Shown in pieces: positions 2,770 to 61,297 of a stretch of DNA of 64,000 nt. Position numbers and translations under genes: made by a program. Numbering within the stretch: the stretch's first letter is position 1; every line of letters begins with the position of its first letter. This DNA is from a virus: positions 1-64,000 of IMG/VR virus record IMGVR_UViG_3300033489_000004; one strand, given 5' to 3'. The notes under the pieces are model-generated. The model was not told where the DNA came from. It ran no database searches and saw only the letters and a program-made list of their open reading frames with translations.

Positions 2770-3165
2770 TTACGCTGCTCTTATTTTTGGTGTAACCTTT
2801 AAAGAATCTCCATCATTAATTGTTCGTGCTGCTGCAAAACTTTGTACTGCAATTAAATCTCCACTTGTACCTGAAGCTACATCAGTAATAAATGCTCCAG
2901 TAATATCCCCCCAGTCACCACCACTTGCAGTAAAAGTTTGTTCTGCATAAGTCGCTAAATCATCAACTATTGACCAAGAACCTCGAGATAATGCTATTCT
3001 TGCATAACCACTGCCAGAAGGTTCGGTTAAATCAGCAAGGGCCTCTGTTTCTCCTGGTTCTGCAACATCTTGATAAAGTCCTAAATATAACGTTGTATCT
3101 ACTGGAGTAGCTCCCAATAAAATATCTAATACCCTATTTTCACCTGCATCTGTCCATTTAGCCAT
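2770..3165 (-). CDS. putative tail/fibre-associated structural protein
   Basis: LYLGLY...EPSGSGYARIA...FTASGGDWGDIT...RTINDGDSLKV pattern typical of a widespread small phage tail protein family. Confidence 0.6.
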   Translation of the reverse strand: MAKWTDAGENRVLDILLGATPVDTTLYLGLYQDVAEPGETEALADLTEPSGSGYARIALSRGSWSIVDDLATYAEQTFTASGGDWGDITGAFITDVASGTSGDLIAVQSFAAARTINDGDSLKVTPKIRAA

Positions 3166-3192
3166 TTTATTCTCCTTTCTTATTTATTATTG

Positions 3193-3597
3193 TTAGCCTA
3201 TAACTTCTATATAGTCTTTAAATATGCTGTCATCTTTTTGTAATTTATAAGCTAATATACTTATCAGTGCTTCATCATTAGGTTTTAGATAAACCCCACT
3301 TTCTTTTCCTTCTATTATATTAAATACAAAAATATTACTGAAGCTAATATTTTTAATTTTAATAAAAGCATGGCTGTTTTGTATAATATCCCCTATTTCA
3401 TAAAATTTATAACTATCCTCTATTTTAACTACATAGGTAGTATTGTTATTAAAAGATATTGTAGCTTTATACAAACCCCCACCAATTTCCAACATTGGTA
3501 TAATATTTTGTTCATCAATAGGATAAACAATTTCTGCATTAATTAACAGTCCTTCCTCTTTGTTTTTAGACTTATAAAAAATACTCCTAGAAACCAT
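3193..3597 (-). CDS. hypothetical protein
   Basis: ORF track, same strand as operon. Confidence 0.55.
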   Translation of the reverse strand: MVSRSIFYKSKNKEEGLLINAEIVYPIDEQNIIPMLEIGGGLYKATISFNNNTTYVVKIEDSYKFYEIGDIIQNSHAFIKIKNISFSNIFVFNIIEGKESGVYLKPNDEALISILAYKLQKDDSIFKDYIEVIG

Positions 3598-3609
3598 TTT
3601 TCCTTCGTT

Positions 3610-4032
3610 TTATAATACCTGTCCACCTTCTGAAATTTCATCTATTGCATCTCTAATTGCCTTTAAAGAATCTGTCCCAGAATCAAAACTTGTTCCTTGA
3701 ATATCTTCAACATCATCTATCAAATCAGTGATATCTTTTAGTTTAACTTTATACTTTATAACCTTAGCAAACTTTTTTTCTAATTCAACTAAACGATAAA
3801 CTTTAGCCGCCCAAATACCTTCTTCATCAGGAATAAAAGAATAGGCATAAACTCCTATAAATTCGGGGGTAGTCACTCCATCATCTTTTTCTATCATAGT
3901 AAATGGAGATCCAACTAGGATATCCCCATTTTCATCAAATATATCTACTTTACAGTCTATTTGACCAGACTGAAAATTTCCTGGTACATATAAAACTTCA
4001 ATAGACTCACCAACTTTATAATCTGGATTCAT
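3610..4032 (-). CDS. hypothetical virion protein (possible Ig-like fold)
   Basis: GVYAYSFIPDEEGIWAAKV beta-sandwich-like motif; RBS AAGGAG. Confidence 0.5.
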   Translation of the reverse strand: MNPDYKVGESIEVLYVPGNFQSGQIDCKVDIFDENGDILVGSPFTMIEKDDGVTTPEFIGVYAYSFIPDEEGIWAAKVYRLVELEKKFAKVIKYKVKLKDITDLIDDVEDIQGTSFDSGTDSLKAIRDAIDEISEGGQVL

Positions 4033-37449: not shown

Positions 37450-37526
37450 TGGGGTGAACGGAGGAACTTGAATCCTCTTCAGTCCAGGGCCACAACCTGG
37501 TGCTTTACCATATAAGCTACGCTCAC
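37450..37526 (-). tRNA. tRNA-His(GTG)
   Basis: GTGAGCG..CCAGG-TT-GTG-GC-CCTGG..TTCAAGT..CGTTCACCCCA, encoded CCA. Confidence 0.9.
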
Positions 37527-37528
37527 AG

Positions 37529-37601
37529 TCGGATAGGCAGGAATCGAACCTGCAGCAACCTGGCCCCAAACCAGGGACTCCACCACCTGAGCTACTATCC
37601 G
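37529..37601 (-). tRNA. tRNA-Pro(TGG)
   Basis: CGGATAG..CCTGG-TT-TGG-GG-CCAGG..GGTTCGATTCC..CTATCCGA. Confidence 0.9.
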
Positions 37602-37602
37602 G

Positions 37603-37684
37603 TGCCGGGGGAGGGAGTCGAACCCTCACAGCCTAAGACCACCGGATTTTAAGTCCAGCGTGTATACCGTTCCACCACCCCGGC
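37603..37684 (-). tRNA. tRNA-Leu(TAA)
   Basis: GCCGGGG..CTGGA-CT-TAA-AA-TCCGG, long variable arm, GGTTCGACTCC..CCCCGGCA. Confidence 0.92.
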
Positions 37685-37687
37685 TAA

Positions 37688-37793
37688 GGAAATAGGTACA
37701 GTTTTATTGGTGCTCGTGACAATCATTGTACTACCTGATACCACAGACGCCAGCTACTCGTTTCTGCACACCGTCAGGACTATTCTATTTCCC
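37688..37793 (-). ncRNA. unassigned structured RNA inside tRNA array
   Basis: Closing stem GGAAATAG/CTATTTCC with two internal arms (CCTGA/TCAGG; GTACA/TGTAC). Confidence 0.55.
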
Positions 37794-37795
37794 TG

Positions 37796-37867
37796 TGCTG
37801 CTAAGGAGAATCGAACTCCTGTCTTTGGCTTGAAGGGCCAATATCCTAACCACTAGACGATAGCGGC
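37796..37867 (-). tRNA. tRNA-Glu(TTC), atypical (C33, C3:A70)
   Basis: TCGTCTAGTGGTTAGGA D-arm of Glu type; TTGGC-CCTTCAA-GCCAA; GGAGTTCGATTCTCC. Confidence 0.8.
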
Positions 37868-53114: not shown

Positions 53115-53199
53115 GTCCCAGTGTTGTAATTTGGTAGCTGAGCAGGACTTAAAATTCTGTGGCCATAAGGTCGTGCTGGTTCGAGTCCAGCCTGGGACA
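53115..53199 (+). tRNA. tRNA-Leu(TAA), second divergent copy
   Basis: GTCCCAG/CTGGGAC acceptor, CAGGA-CT-TAA-AA-TTCTG, variable arm GGCC-ATAA-GGTC, GCTGG-TTCGAGT-CCAGC. Confidence 0.88.
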
Positions 53200-53356
53200 C
53201 GAAAGGAGAAACAACAATGAATATGAGTATTAGTTTATTTGGTTCTGGTGGATATTTTCATATTTGGATATCCTTTAGAAAACAAATTGTTCTATCTATT
53301 ACTATAGATTCTTTGTTTGTGGAACTAGTAGTATTTAATAAAAAAGTAGTAGAAAA

Positions 53357-56130: not shown

Positions 56131-56421
56131 ATGGTCTCTTCGTTTCATCGAGGGCATAAAACAATAACAGGCAAAGATCTAAGGTGGAGATATGCCGACA
56201 CAGAAAGATTAGTCCCTATTAATCCTTCAAAAGAAAGGCCCTGTAAACTATGTGGCAAAAAGCCAACTAGGGGTGGTGATGATTGGTGTCTTGGACATCT
56301 TCCAGGAGTTTTGTTTGCTTGTTGTGGTCATGGTGTTGAAGAAGGCTATATTCTTTTTGAAAACGGCATAAGAATAAGCGGAAAGTTTACAGTAGAAAGA
56401 TTTAATAAAAGGCGTAAGTAA
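56131..56421 (+). CDS. conserved phage hypothetical protein
   Basis: RPCKLCG..DWCLGHLPGVLFACCGHG motif. Confidence 0.65.
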   Translation: MVSSFHRGHKTITGKDLRWRYADTERLVPINPSKERPCKLCGKKPTRGGDDWCLGHLPGVLFACCGHGVEEGYILFENGIRISGKFTVERFNKRRK

Positions 56422-57191
56422 TGAATCTTAAAGAAGAATTTCTAAATGAATTGAAAGTTATTGGTTTTTCAAGATATACGACAATTAACTATAGTTCAGA
56501 TATTTCCAAACTGGAAAAAAACGGACTAGAAAATATTGAATATAACAATCTACGAAATATTGTATTAGAGACATTAGGAAATATTCCCAATCTTCGCTCA
56601 AGATCAAGAGCATTAAGTTGCTATAAATCCTTTTCTCGGTGGCTATATGACAACGAATATACGGATAAAGACACTTTAAAGTCCCTAAAGTCAATCAAAG
56701 TACCTAAAGTCCTTTTAAAAATTCCTAAAATTCAAAAAAGACCTATTCATAGTGAGTTTAAAAGCAAAAATTCGTTATATCAGACAATTATTGACACTCT
56801 AGAGCAGACAGGGGTGCGAGTAGGGGAATTGAGTCGATTAACTTTAGGAAATCTTAAAGAAGAAAGTATTATTGTATTCGGTAAAGGTTCTAAGGAAAGA
56901 GAAATACCTTGCAATAAAAAATTAGTCCTAGACATTCAAAGGGAATTGGGGATACATAAGCATTTTCCCTCTACTTCACAAATATTTAGGATCGTTAAGA
57001 AATATCTAGGGGTATCGCCGCATAAGCTACGCCACAATTTTGCCAAAAAATTAGCTGCTTCTGGGGCTAATGGTTTTACTATAATGCAACTGCTTGGGCA
57101 TAGCTCAATTTCAACCTCTCAGATTTATATAAATCTTGCAAATGATAAAAGCCTAAAGAAAGCTGTTGAAAAAGCTAATGAGAGAACGTAG
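56421..57191 (+). CDS. XerC/D-like tyrosine recombinase
   Basis: TGVRVGEL, GKGSKER, PHKLRHNFA, LLGHSSISTSQIY. Confidence 0.9.
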   Translation: MNLKEEFLNELKVIGFSRYTTINYSSDISKLEKNGLENIEYNNLRNIVLETLGNIPNLRSRSRALSCYKSFSRWLYDNEYTDKDTLKSLKSIKVPKVLLKIPKIQKRPIHSEFKSKNSLYQTIIDTLEQTGVRVGELSRLTLGNLKEESIIVFGKGSKEREIPCNKKLVLDIQRELGIHKHFPSTSQIFRIVKKYLGVSPHKLRHNFAKKLAASGANGFTIMQLLGHSSISTSQIYINLANDKSLKKAVEKANERT

Positions 57192-57386
57192 TTACTCAAA
57201 GAATAAAAAATGTGTTGATTGTAATAAACTAATTAGTAATAAATCTACTCGATGCAATAGATGTAGTACAATATTTTGCTATAGTAGAATAAAAACAGAG
57301 TATAAAAATAAAGATTGGCTTTATCAAAAATATATAACAGAAAAAAGACAATTGAAAGCATAGCAAAAGAGTTATAAGGAAGAATA

Positions 57387-58391
57387 ATGCTTAATCTTGA
57401 TAAGTTAAAAGAAAAGTTTAATAGTTTAAGCGGAAACTATTCTTTTCAAACCAATAAGTTGAGACCCAAGGATTTTGATTCATATATCGGAAATTCTAAT
57501 GCCAAGAATCTAGTACAGATGACTCTATTATCTTGTCAAAAACAAAATAAGCCGTTCCCCCACGTTTTAATTGCAGGGCAGTCGGGGACAGGAAAAACAT
57601 CCTTGGCTATGCTTATAGCCGCATACCAGAAAGGTTCTATAATTGATTGTCAGATGCCCGTGAATTATGACGAATGGGTTGCTTCTATAGTTAGAATCCC
57701 TGCTCGGTATCCTGGCGACGGTTTTTCTGTACTAATAGCTGATGAGATCCACTTACAATCCCGAAAACAGCCAGAAACACTTTATTCTATACTAGAAGAA
57801 AATTTTATCATTATTAATGGGGAAAGATGTTATGTTCCTTCATTTACTGCGGTCGGGTGTACTACTGAAATAGGGGAGATAACCCCCCCGCTTAGAAATA
57901 GGTTTTCTTTACTTATACAATTAGATAAGCTAACCCTAGAAGACATGAAAAAAGTAACCTTGCAAGGAGCAAATAAATATGATATTGATATTACAGATAA
58001 AGCAGTTGAGCTGATAGCTAGGGTTAGTAATAGTATACCTAGAGATTGTAATAGCTATTTAACGCACTGCCTAAATCTTTCAAAGGCATTAGAATCAAAT
58101 AGTATAGATGAAGAAACAGTTCAAACAGTATTTTCTCTCTTAAAAGTAAATGAAGATGGGATAGATCTTTCCTGTATTAACTATTTGAAAATCTTGCGAG
58201 ATGTTTTCAAAATGGAAAAGACAGGGATTCGTACTATAGCAGCTACCATAGGGGAAAATCCTGCCACTATCGAGCTAATAATAGAGCCAAAGCTACTGAA
58301 TTTGGGCTTGATTGTTAAAACTCCTCGTGGTAGAATGCTAGTAGACAAGGGATTAGATTATCTTGAGTCTGATAAAGTAAAGGAGATTTAA
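57387..58391 (+). CDS. ruvB: Holliday junction branch-migration ATPase RuvB
   Basis: LRPKDFDSYIG, GQSGTGKT, ADEIH, PLRNRF, IEPKLL..TPRGR. Confidence 0.9.
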   Translation: MLNLDKLKEKFNSLSGNYSFQTNKLRPKDFDSYIGNSNAKNLVQMTLLSCQKQNKPFPHVLIAGQSGTGKTSLAMLIAAYQKGSIIDCQMPVNYDEWVASIVRIPARYPGDGFSVLIADEIHLQSRKQPETLYSILEENFIIINGERCYVPSFTAVGCTTEIGEITPPLRNRFSLLIQLDKLTLEDMKKVTLQGANKYDIDITDKAVELIARVSNSIPRDCNSYLTHCLNLSKALESNSIDEETVQTVFSLLKVNEDGIDLSCINYLKILRDVFKMEKTGIRTIAATIGENPATIELIIEPKLLNLGLIVKTPRGRMLVDKGLDYLESDKVKEI

Positions 58392-58587: not shown

Positions 58588-59143
58588 ATGTCAGGGTGGA
58601 TGGATAATGCTGTGGTAGGATCTATTGCAAGACAGTACAACTATTCTACGGGTTTTAGTGCCTTAGCTATAGAAGAAAAGAAAATGGCTACCACACTAGA
58701 AAATAGAGCTGTAGCTGATGGTCAGGTGTATAAACCATTAGGATCTCTTGATCAAATAGAAGTTAAGTATATGTTTGATGGGAATTTTACAGCTTGTATT
58801 GTACTTGACCAAGGTAAAGAATCTGTAGGAATTGCAAAAAGAGCTGCGAGCCTGGACAATTATAATAAAGAAACTGGTAAAAAGGTGGCTTTCAGGAGCG
58901 CAGTAAACCATCTTTTGGGTGTTAGTAATAAATACACTAGACAGCATAGTTCTAGGAAATACTATGGATAAAAAGGGTTCCGATTGTGTTGGTATTTGGA
59001 TAAATGGATCTAGGATAACTTGTCCTAACTGTTACACAATAGTAGAACCAACACAACAACATATAGCAAAATGCCCCAATTGTCTAATAAGTTATGAGGG
59101 ACAAAACTTGAAAAACTTATGTGATAAAAGGATATCCAAATGA
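58588..59143 (+). other. hypothetical ORFs (58588-58971 Gp49/DUF2829-like, 58964-59143 Zn-ribbon)
   Basis: ORF track; FTACIV..SVGIA..DNYNKETGKKVAF motif. Confidence 0.5.
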
Positions 59144-59282
59144 GTTATATAAATAGTTTTCTATCCCTGCGCTGCTCATGCGCCAGGCGTTCGGCACACA
59201 GAGAGAAAAGGAGTAGGGGATGAGACAAATGAAGCATAGAGCTCTTGTCGTTCCCCTCAGACAACTTTCTGAGTCACAAATG

Positions 59283-59394
59283 ATCCCGTTCGGTAATCTT
59301 TGAAGCAAAAAGACTTGCGTTCGCCAAAATATTACCGCACGGTAAGTTATTGCTTGACAGGCACTCAATAGTGTGATATATTCCCTATCGGTAA
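59283..59394 (+). promoter_or_regulatory. sigma70 promoter with three operator palindromes
   Basis: TTGACA(59354)-N17-TATATT; ATCCCGTTCGGTAA, TTACCGCACGGTAA, TTCCCTATCGGTAA at exact 49-bp spacing. Confidence 0.8.
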
Positions 59395-59395
59395 C

Positions 59396-59644
59396 ATGAA
59401 TACTAAAAATCCAGAGCAGCTTGGCGCTGCTATTCGCGCAAGGCGCAGACAGTTGAAGGTTACCCAGAAGGATCTGGCGATGACCTGTGGTACGGGTTTG
59501 CGCTTCATTATTGACCTTGAGAAGGGCAAGCCAACCTGCCAAATCGGAAAAATCCTACAGGTTCTCCAAGCCCTGGGGCTCAAGCTCCAGATTGTTAGCC
59601 CTGGCGTTGACACCGGCCAAGGCGAGAAGTCATGGATAAATTGA
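59396..59644 (+). CDS. hipB: HipB-like XRE/HTH antitoxin (y4mF family)
   Basis: LGAAIRARRRQLKVTQKDLAMTCGTGLRFIIDLEKGKPTCQIGKILQVLQALGL. Confidence 0.88.
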   Translation: MNTKNPEQLGAAIRARRRQLKVTQKDLAMTCGTGLRFIIDLEKGKPTCQIGKILQVLQALGLKLQIVSPGVDTGQGEKSWIN

Positions 59645-60060
59645 TCGTTTATCTGAATGCCGAGAGGGTCGGAAGCCTCGAACAAGACGATAGTGGCTTG
59701 CTGCAATTCTCCTACGATCAGACATGGCTTGAAAAGCCGAGTGCCATGCCTCTCTCTCGTTCACTACCTCTCCAAAGCGAGGTGTTCTCGGGGAAAAAGG
59801 CCAGGCCTTTCTTTGCCGGCATACTACCCGAAGAGGGACCACGAAAAAAGATAGCAGAGATCCTCGGAATCAGTGACGCAAATGACTTTGCAATGTTGGA
59901 GAGGATAGGAGGTGTTATAATGAAAGATATACTAGAGTATCCTTGTGGGTTAAGTGGGGTGGATGCAGTAGATTGTGAAATAATATACAGCAAGTGTGGT
60001 ATCTGTTGTGCTGAGTGTGAAGGACCCTGTGATGAAATCTGTGAAGAATGTAAATTATAA
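59632..60060 (+). CDS. HipA N-terminal domain only, fused in frame to a Cys-rich phage peptide (59920-60060)
   Basis: VGSL..FSYDQTWL..PLSRSLPL..PFFAGILPEE..NDFAMLERIGG, then no kinase domain. Confidence 0.8.
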   Translation: MDKLIVYLNAERVGSLEQDDSGLLQFSYDQTWLEKPSAMPLSRSLPLQSEVFSGKKARPFFAGILPEEGPRKKIAEILGISDANDFAMLERIGGVIMKDILEYPCGLSGVDAVDCEIIYSKCGICCAECEGPCDEICEECKL

Positions 60061-60072
60061 AAAGGAGTAGTA

Positions 60073-61297
60073 ATGGAGACTAAAAATGCTAAGATTACAG
60101 GTACTATGTTAGGAATAGAAGATCATGGAATATTTACTTGTTTTATTTGTCTAGAATATGGGGGTAGTGGTCAGGGTTTTGGGGGACATGCTTTAGACGA
60201 ATATGATAAAGAAGCAGATACTCGTATTGGTGTGTCTGGAGGAATAGAGTATATCAGAAAAGTTTTAGAAGTAATAGAAGTAGATTCTTGGGAAGAGTTA
60301 AAAGGAAAATACTGTAGAGTAATAGTGGATAATTTTAAAGTATACTCAATAGGGAATATCACTAAAGAAAAATGGTTTGATCCACAAAAGGACATAAACT
60401 GGAAGGATTAAGTTGAAAATGGTAGAATACTATGATTAAGTGTACTCAGTTAGATAATAAAACTTGTGGCCGGTATCCTTGTGAATATGGACATACCCGC
60501 TGTTGTTATTATTGTTCTAGATTAGTAACATGTTTTGCCAGAGATAATGGATGGAAACTTTGTAATAAGATCTATAAGATATTAGCTAGTAACATTTCTA
60601 TTGGAATAAAGGTAAAGGGTGAGTGCAGTCTATGTAAAGAAGGTTTTGATAGTAACCAGAGTCTCATAAAGCATTTAAAATCTAAAAGACACATCACAAA
60701 GGTATTGAAAGAAATTGAAAATGGTTAAAATAAAAGGTTGGCTATTGAATGAGTTATTACTGATAATGCCGGGTTTAATATTAGGAACTATTTTTTGTGT
60801 GGCTATTATTAATTTTGCTGTATTATTAGCTACAGAAAATAAGCCTAAACCTAAAAAAGAGGAAACAAAAATACGGCAACTTCAAAAAGAAATAGAATAT
60901 CAAAATAAAGTTAACTATAATCTTCAATGGAAGTATGTTGATTTACAACATCAAAAAGATACGGTAGAATTGTACTTGTGGCAATATGGTACGAATCAAA
61001 TTACCAAAGAAGAACTAGCTGCAAAAATAGAGGCCATAGAACCTAGAAGTTTCTTATTAAAGATTAAAAAACACAAATTAAGCTGGGAGAAATAATGAAA
61101 GGAGCATTAACATTATGTGTTTAGAATATATAGGTGGTTTGTTAAGACACTGTTTTAATTGTATACAGAGTGAAAATAAAGAGAAACTTCCTAATAGTAT
61201 AGATAAAGCTAAAATAATTCACCGACTAAACGGAAGTGAGTGTGCTGTTATAACAAAATACTATCTTGATAAAGAAAATCTAAAGAAGCATAGATGA
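60073..61297 (+). other. hypothetical ORFs (60073-60411, 60432-60728 Cys-rich/C2H2, 60721-61095 membrane-anchored, 61115-61297)
   Basis: ORF track. Confidence 0.55.

Follow-up and report, generated by a model that had tools for sequence, protein, structure and literature searches.

Does a large phage that carries an intact hipB gene next to a hipA gene without its kinase part hold an orphan antitoxin against Hip kinases, or a stray piece of bacterial DNA? The locus lies in an IMG/VR virus record of 103,402 bp (CheckV completeness estimate 57%), the first 64 kb of which are the stretch of DNA analysed here, referred to below as the window. This record has a G+C content of 34.5% and encodes capsid, tail and replication genes. 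The original prediction had described a captured segment with its own promoter, a HipB-like protein and a HipS-like N-terminal piece of HipA, and had proposed that the two proteins form an antitoxin pair against Hip kinase defence. In our analysis the segment proved to be foreign and recently acquired, with hipB intact and hipA reduced to a stub that lacks the kinase, and the features described earlier were all present at their stated positions. The function ascribed to this segment has to be divided, however. An anti-defence role is plausible for the HipB half on the lines of evidence discussed below, and unlikely for the HipA stub.

The predicted segment of about 750 bp and about 50% G+C is well delimited (Table 1). 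Its G+C content is 0.499 at 59164-59912, compared with 0.348 in the left flank, 0.320 in the right flank and 0.344 in the window, and this is the top G+C stretch across the entire 103-kb record. The second and sole other G+C peak, at 37.4 kb, is explained by clustered minus-strand tRNA genes (His, Pro, Leu-UAA, Glu) at 37450-37867; an additional tRNA-Leu(UAA) is encoded on the plus strand at 53115-53200. The insert is located within a plus-strand series of small ORFs, several of them Cys-rich, with a helicase, a XerC/D-like recombinase and a RuvB-like ATPase encoded upstream. The small Cys-rich ORFs are clustered at 58919-61297. Besides the one affected by the insert, they comprise a zinc ribbon ORF (CPNC..CPNC; 58964-59143), an ORF of 98 aa that includes a C2H2 zinc finger (60432-60728) and one of 60 aa that contains Cys (61115-61297). 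Farther upstream, at 56421-58391, a 256-aa XerC/D-like tyrosine recombinase that scores below all curated cut-offs is followed by the RuvB-like ATPase (201 bits, cut-off 282), an uncommon pairing in a large phage.

Table 1. Features of the captured segment and of its junctions with phage DNA (positions in the window).
Feature	Position	Strand	Remarks
Interrupted native phage ORF	59140..59223	+	ATG overlaps stop of upstream zinc-ribbon ORF (ATGA)
Left junction zone	59160..59188		About 25 G+C-rich nt, no donor match
Stretch homologous to bacterial hipBA cassettes	59186..59912	+	95.3% identical to L041; 91% to L013 and L011
GTTCGGC, integron R' core, 5' boundary (G/TT) of donor hipBA cassette	59189..59195	+	
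Three 19-nt operator-like boxes (..CCG-N-CGGTAA)	59278..59394	+	Starts at 59278, 59327 and 59376; 49-nt spacing
Sigma-70-type promoter, TTGACA-17-TATATT with TG extension	59354..59382	+	11 of 12 consensus positions; conserved in donors
hipB, intact, 82 aa	59396..59644	+	Matches to TIGR03070 couple_hipB and HTH_3
hipA codons 1-93 (N-subdomain 1 minus last strand)	59632..59912	+	Kinase part absent
Right junction	59907..59913	+	hipA-derived AGGAGG (..IGG codons) abuts phage DNA at 59912/59913
Native 46-aa Cys-rich phage mini-gene (CGICCAEC peptide)	59920..60060	+	Stand-alone, or tail of 142-aa fusion

Both ends of the segment could be placed by comparison with bacterial DNA. On the left, the insert interrupts an AT-rich ORF, as had been claimed: about 8 native codons (MSYINSF..) are followed by meaningless sequence that runs through the insert to a TGA at 59221-59223. 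None of the donors matches the phage upstream of 59186-59190. The G+C-rich left junction zone occupies the position at which the donors have the 3' arm of the attC of the preceding cassette; a significant hairpin was looked for in this putative remnant, and none formed. On the right, 65 of about 90 BLAST matches to donors stop at 59912, immediately 3' of AGGAGG. Past this point the donors read ..AGGAGG-CGAGTGCGCTGG (..IGGECAGA) and the phage reads TGTTATAATG. The motif TGTTATAAT at the junction was considered as a recurrent phage promoter and rejected, with 4 copies found vs 4.7 expected. An Rfam search gave no match. The cassette leader also contains a 27-codon ORF with a good ribosome-binding site (59221-59304), which is present in the donor loci L013, L041, L060 and L066 and precisely deleted in L014 and L048.

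An abrupt step in G+C at both ends of an insert may also arise when bacterial reads are wrongly joined into a phage contig, and the exact pattern at the right junction had no match in other viral or metagenome contigs, a collection from which records nearly identical to the window may have been withheld. Such a chimera would require two false joins 750 bp apart, however, each with a few shared bases at most and no long shared k-mers, and the phage DNA on both sides has the same orientation and gene order. In addition, the exact 142-aa fusion protein that spans the right junction is recorded by JGI/IMG, Logan and ENA, and it occurs on two contigs of different length, the longest of which has 105,710 nt vs 103,402 for this record. 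This recurrence in three sources largely removes the worry about chimeric assembly that accompanied the original prediction. We regard an assembly artefact as extremely improbable and are highly confident that the segment is a real capture.

The bacterial relatives of the segment reveal what was captured. Hundreds of full-length HipA kinases of 418 aa share 95-98% identity with the stub at their N-termini, and HipB is 97-99% identical to the 79-aa HipB of intact modules. Thus, the donor hipA does run on into a kinase, a point that the original prediction had raised. The best donor at the DNA level, L041, is 95.3% identical over 726 nt (59189-59914). Donor sequences stem from metagenomes and MAGs and are affiliated with Omnitrophota, Desulfobacterota, Syntrophales, Dehalococcoidia, Neomarinimicrobiota, Lentisphaerota, Spirochaetota, Fibrobacterota and Verrucomicrobiota. 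In these organisms the module begins G/TTCGGCACACAG.. (the slash marks the boundary) and is preceded by unrelated imperfect palindromes. At the other end, the hipA stop overlaps GCCGAAC (R''), the reverse complement of GTTCGGC, in 24 of 38 distinct full-length donors. The 3' site is 58-70 nt long, contains a GGATTCAGCCG...CGGCTGATCC stem (L''/L') with one extra-helical T, and ends in GTTRRRY; beyond it, the flanks differ between genomes. This arrangement is the R''-L''-L'-R' architecture of integron attC sites. Integron integrases (TIGR02249; 441, 404 and 369 bits, cut-off 265) were found in two of five donor genomes vs none of 14 controls, counted at the level of genomes. Because of the G/TTCGGC boundary, the attC architecture and the integrases in donor genomes, the hipBA family with a 418-aa HipA and a 79-aa HipB is, judged by its sequence, an integron gene cassette. 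The cassette is common to about ten phyla of bacteria from anoxic habitats at 85-98% protein identity, and its nature as an integron cassette accounts for this near-identity across phyla. A cassette so promiscuous cannot name the host of the phage. The earlier suggestion that the segment points to the host or a donor lineage therefore holds only weakly. Many copies of the cassette (donor loci L011-L089, for example L055, L060 and L041) carry a decayed hipA of 116-336 aa beside an intact hipB. In PADLOC, the donor kinase matched a candidate family weakly (best E 2e-9, 35 bits), and no defence model beyond a generic HTH was found for HipB or the stub.

The phage copy contains no complete cassette, as its left end lies about 25 nt inside the previous attC and its right end inside hipA. 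We considered that the phage recombinase might have acted as an integron integrase, and rejected this because the enzyme is XerC/D-like (52.7 bits on TIGR02249, cut-off 265) and the junctions are not at G/TT. With neither junction at a cassette boundary and a phage recombinase that is not an IntI, the capture was evidently an illegitimate recombination with an integrated array. The AGGAGG shared at the right junction may plausibly have served as microhomology. Over 583 aligned nt, the phage copy has two private bases compared with 48 distinct donors; one of them, at 59635, both exchanges TGA for TGG and changes HipA residue 2 from N to D. One of the two replaces G/C by A/T and the other does the reverse, so there is no drift toward A+T. 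Since only two private substitutions have accumulated and the composition has not ameliorated toward that of the phage, the capture is evidently recent. For the same reason the intactness of the ORFs is uninformative, and the amelioration test over the 583 nt yielded no signal of residence time or selection.

The regulatory region and hipB were captured in full. The promoter claimed for the segment is a near-consensus site and the best match in the region. It is accompanied by three operator-like boxes, the second of which is the palindrome TTACCG-CA-CGGTAA, while the third overlaps the -10 element. Operator-like boxes were not found elsewhere in the 103-kb record. Upstream of hipB, no plus-strand terminator was found between the phage genes and hipB, and therefore read-through transcription from upstream is possible. 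HipB would thus carry its own autoregulated promoter and could also be transcribed from the phage genes in front of it. The predicted HTH protein is intact and reaches 78.6 bits on TIGR03070 couple_hipB, above the curated cut-off of 71.65, which places it in the Xre-type HTH family; on HTH_3 it scores 25.9 (cut-off 23). The 3' end of hipB overlaps the ATG of hipA (59632). Here the private substitution at 59635 has turned the donor stop codon into TGG and adds W-I-N to the usual 79 aa. Read-through HipB variants of 82 aa also exist in bacteria, with other endings. In E. coli, the C-terminal tail of HipB is a Lon degradation tag and ends in Trp (PMC3376134).

What remains of hipA is the N-terminal part only, as the original prediction had stated in describing its first ~93 aa. 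Residues 1-93 match positions 1-90 of 99 of Pfam Couple_hipA (PF13657; E 4.6e-22) as well as TIGR03071 (E 5.4e-25), and they align with residues 1-94 of E. coli HipA. The HipA_C kinase core (PF07804) is absent from the fusion ORF, and a search for the kinase domain over the whole 103-kb record found none. The fusion ORF (59632-60060) encodes 142 aa and joins the 93-residue HipA N-terminus to a 46-aa Cys-rich phage peptide, with two codons between the parts. Its frame is preserved, for which the chance is one in three. The observation that the hipA codons for ERIGG double as an AGGAGG ribosome-binding site of the Cys-rich ORF, in frame with it, proved correct: the motif lies 7 nt before the ATG. 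Reading frame and a length of 753 nt would also be compatible with the insert having simply split a longer native gene (MSYINSF..VIMKDIL..). The sole homologue of the Cys-rich part, the 41-aa protein P0242 (68-70% identical), starts as a stand-alone protein, however, and because this homologue exists the Cys-rich ORF appears to be a genuine mini-gene of its own. As the ideal ribosome-binding site has been kept, the Cys-rich protein is probably still made alone.

Could the stub be an antitoxin in its own right? In HipBST, HipS is the antitoxin (PMC6581861, PMC10627512), and the region equivalent to HipS is covered, with residues 6-86 of the fragment aligning to HipS 7-81 of 103. An AlphaFold2 model of the 142-aa fusion is confident for residues 1-60 alone, and this part matches the structures of the HipA N-subdomain and of HipS. 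According to this reading HipB and the HipA N-domain would form an antitoxin pair, the stub blocking a HipT or HipA kinase like HipS does, or acting as a dominant negative through the dimer interface, because the N-subdomain takes part in HipA-HipA dimerisation (PMC6581861). Several properties of the stub speak against this. It is most closely related to unsplit kinases of 418 aa, where N-subdomain 1 belongs to the enzyme rather than inhibiting it and the binding site of the domain is occupied in cis. Extrapolated from the alignment, the stub ends about 15 residues short of HipS, near HipS residue 88, and by the same extrapolation it lacks the fifth strand of the fold, which in HipS consists of residues 95-102 (PMC10627512). 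HipS blocks HipT via Trp65, which sits in a motif unlike that of HipA, and Trp is absent from the stub beyond W32, although some HipS proteins have Pro at the Trp65 site (PMC10627512). From residue 72 onward, moreover, the model has pLDDT values under 50. The HipS-like half of the original prediction is thus not upheld, and the antitoxin pair is quite improbable. A dominant-negative action through the dimer interface is conceivable, but the truncation point coincides with the DNA junction rather than with a domain boundary and therefore looks like an accident rather than a design. In all likelihood the stub is a mere by-product of the removal of the toxin. If it binds HipB, it could even titrate this protein rather than help it.

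Another possible consequence of the insertion is regulatory. A strong, HipB-repressed promoter with 11 of 12 consensus positions is now placed in front of the Cys-rich ORF and the downstream phage genes, no terminator precedes the downstream plus-strand genes, and the distance from AGGAGG to the Cys-rich ORF is ideal. Genes of the region already share one orientation, however, and are presumably read through from upstream, operator boxes are lacking elsewhere in the genome, and comparative support is absent. It is highly improbable that such a side effect is what the insert contributes.

Comparison with known systems helps to define the remaining part. The closest resemblance is to hipBA of E. 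coli K-12 (Y4mF/couple_hipB), which shares the Xre-type HTH HipB above the TIGR03070 cut-off, the start/stop overlap of hipB and hipA, a promoter with repeated palindromic operators, and the alignment of the 93 aa with E. coli HipA. In contrast to hipBA, the phage copy has no kinase core, stops at codon 93 into phage DNA, and resides in a phage and derives from an integron cassette instead of a fixed chromosomal locus. In the hipBST operons of E. coli O127 and Legionella, hipB likewise precedes a short ORF with homology to N-subdomain 1 of HipA, and the confident part of the predicted fold matches HipS structures. However, no hipT occurs in the record, the short ORF is a truncated unsplit hipA with 98% identity to kinases of 418 aa, the last strand is missing and so, it appears, is the Trp motif specific to HipS, and HipB of hipBST is a regulator and not an antitoxin. 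Integron toxin-antitoxin cassettes share with the donor a cassette boundary, an attC and an own promoter typical of chromosomal integrons, but the piece in the phage does not amount to a cassette, since it lacks a complete attC and an integron integrase cannot mobilise it. Finally, the antitoxin half without its toxin in a phage resembles the phage orphan antitoxins, such as the DarG-like proteins of T4-like phages and chimalliviruses. Those are conserved genes with shown activity, whereas a single capture that looks only days old, with bacterial G+C, promoter and toxin stub, is found here. T4 Dmd is a phage-encoded orphan antitoxin used as counter-defence. For HipB as a phage orphan antitoxin, no case was found in the literature searched.

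Based on these comparisons, we propose the following explanation. A 749-bp piece of a bacterial integron array was inserted very recently among the small accessory ORFs of a large AT-rich phage. This piece extends from the last ~25 nt of one attC across the 5' boundary, the leader, the promoter with its operators and hipB to codon 93 of the 418-codon hipA. What remained is an intact, self-repressing HipB that can act as an HTH antitoxin and repressor, and a kinase-less stub fused to the 46-aa phage protein, which should still be translatable from its own ATG by means of the hipA-derived AGGAGG. The sequence comparisons show the origin of the piece, its limits, its intactness and its recency; from the arrangement we infer expression of HipB, neutralisation of a kinase and a benefit for the phage. 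HipB would be the sole part likely to act. Made from its own promoter or by upstream read-through, it would top up the antitoxin in infected cells while host gene expression is shut off, and a cognate integron-borne HipA kinase, 95-99% identical, would thereby be kept silent. This would be an orphan-antitoxin counter-measure. In the hipBA module of E. coli, HipB both neutralises the kinase and represses its own operon; the protein is Lon-labile, so that HipA is set free once HipB is no longer made (PMC3376134). Validation as phage defence exists for a HipA-family kinase system (PMC13092281), and orphan antitoxins against DarTG occur in phages (PMC11257639). Because HipB is unstable, Hip-type defence has been validated and orphan antitoxins against DarTG are known, a phage HipB with 95-99% identity to the HipB of cassettes in circulation is a credible counter-measure. 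On the other side there is a single instance, with no signal of conservation or selection. We therefore hold the explanation as a whole tentatively, at somewhat short of an even chance, and the same holds for the narrower statement that HipB is functionally useful to the phage. A stronger version, in which the phage raided an integron cassette for its antitoxin, and HipB, possibly together with the stub on the HipA dimer interface, disarms integron-borne HipA kinases that would abort infection, is unlikely.

Alternatively, the segment may be a neutral passenger, an accidental piece of host DNA that is tolerated since its toxin is truncated, confers no benefit and will be lost again. A very recent capture without amelioration, the disruption of the start of a native ORF by the insert and the lack of any relative found to carry it would all fit such a passenger, a truncated hipA beside an intact hipB is also a common decay state of the bacterial copies, and PADLOC offers no model that links the cassette with defence. 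Phage genomes seldom keep useless DNA, however, and it would be a suspicious coincidence that the piece comprises exactly the promoter, the operators and the whole antitoxin but no active part of the toxin. In addition, several pipelines assembled the genotype with the insert, which suggests that it is the major haplotype. A passenger is a possibility to be taken seriously, although we doubt it.

Searches for relatives of this phage were extended to several markers. Megablast against phages revealed neither an insert-free nor an insert-bearing relative. Viral contigs found via the 112-aa neighbour protein had ~45% identity and no synteny, those found via the RuvB-like gene had 23% identity and none was syntenic, and an alignment of the Cys-rich ORF recovered none. 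A HipA N-domain was detected in one of 50,697 deposited phage records, where the gene is full length (443 aa), and no close relative of the stub was found among IMG/VR contigs. Five IMG/VR contigs carry relatives of HipB with 68-75% identity; their G+C content is 60-65%, and at least three are lambda-like. Two of them have a complete hipBA, and in two others, which are identical over ~5 kb, a PD-(D/E)XK/REase-ARP nuclease replaces hipA. In the fifth, L101, hipA homology stops at residue 121, within the final 127 nt of the contig, and is therefore ambiguous. Its locus (2959-3682) consists of hipB and a 141-aa ORF, and L101 is 89.5% identical to L097 up to the point of divergence. Two readings fit, namely another viral hip locus without the kinase, or an artefact of the contig end. 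In the related lambda-like contigs L097, L098 and L099 (65% G+C), a slot between the portal and terminase genes holds the hipB-like HTH, with a full hipA behind it in L097 and a 324-aa REase-ARP / PD-(D/E)XK nuclease in L098 and L099. Here the same predicted repressor is paired with swapped effectors. On present data, a kinase-less hip locus in a phage is unique to the record studied here.

This find may represent a phage-borne orphan antitoxin. Independent of the phage, the cassette status of the hipBA family is useful by itself for surveys of integrons and of toxin-antitoxin systems. Even if it has no function, the segment records cleanly, and in a form that can be dated, how genes passed from an integron array into a large phage of virulent appearance; both junctions are known to within a few bases, and it was the recombination that eliminated the toxin. 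If HipB works, orphan-antitoxin counter-defence, so far shown for DarTG and a few others, would extend to Hip kinases, the HipA family having been validated as phage defence only recently, and integron toxin-antitoxin cassettes would be tied to phage pressure. If, moreover, the segment does disarm HipA kinases that would abort infection, it would rank as the first counter-measure to Hip kinases and as direct evidence that phages sample integron toxin-antitoxin cassettes and that these serve in phage defence.
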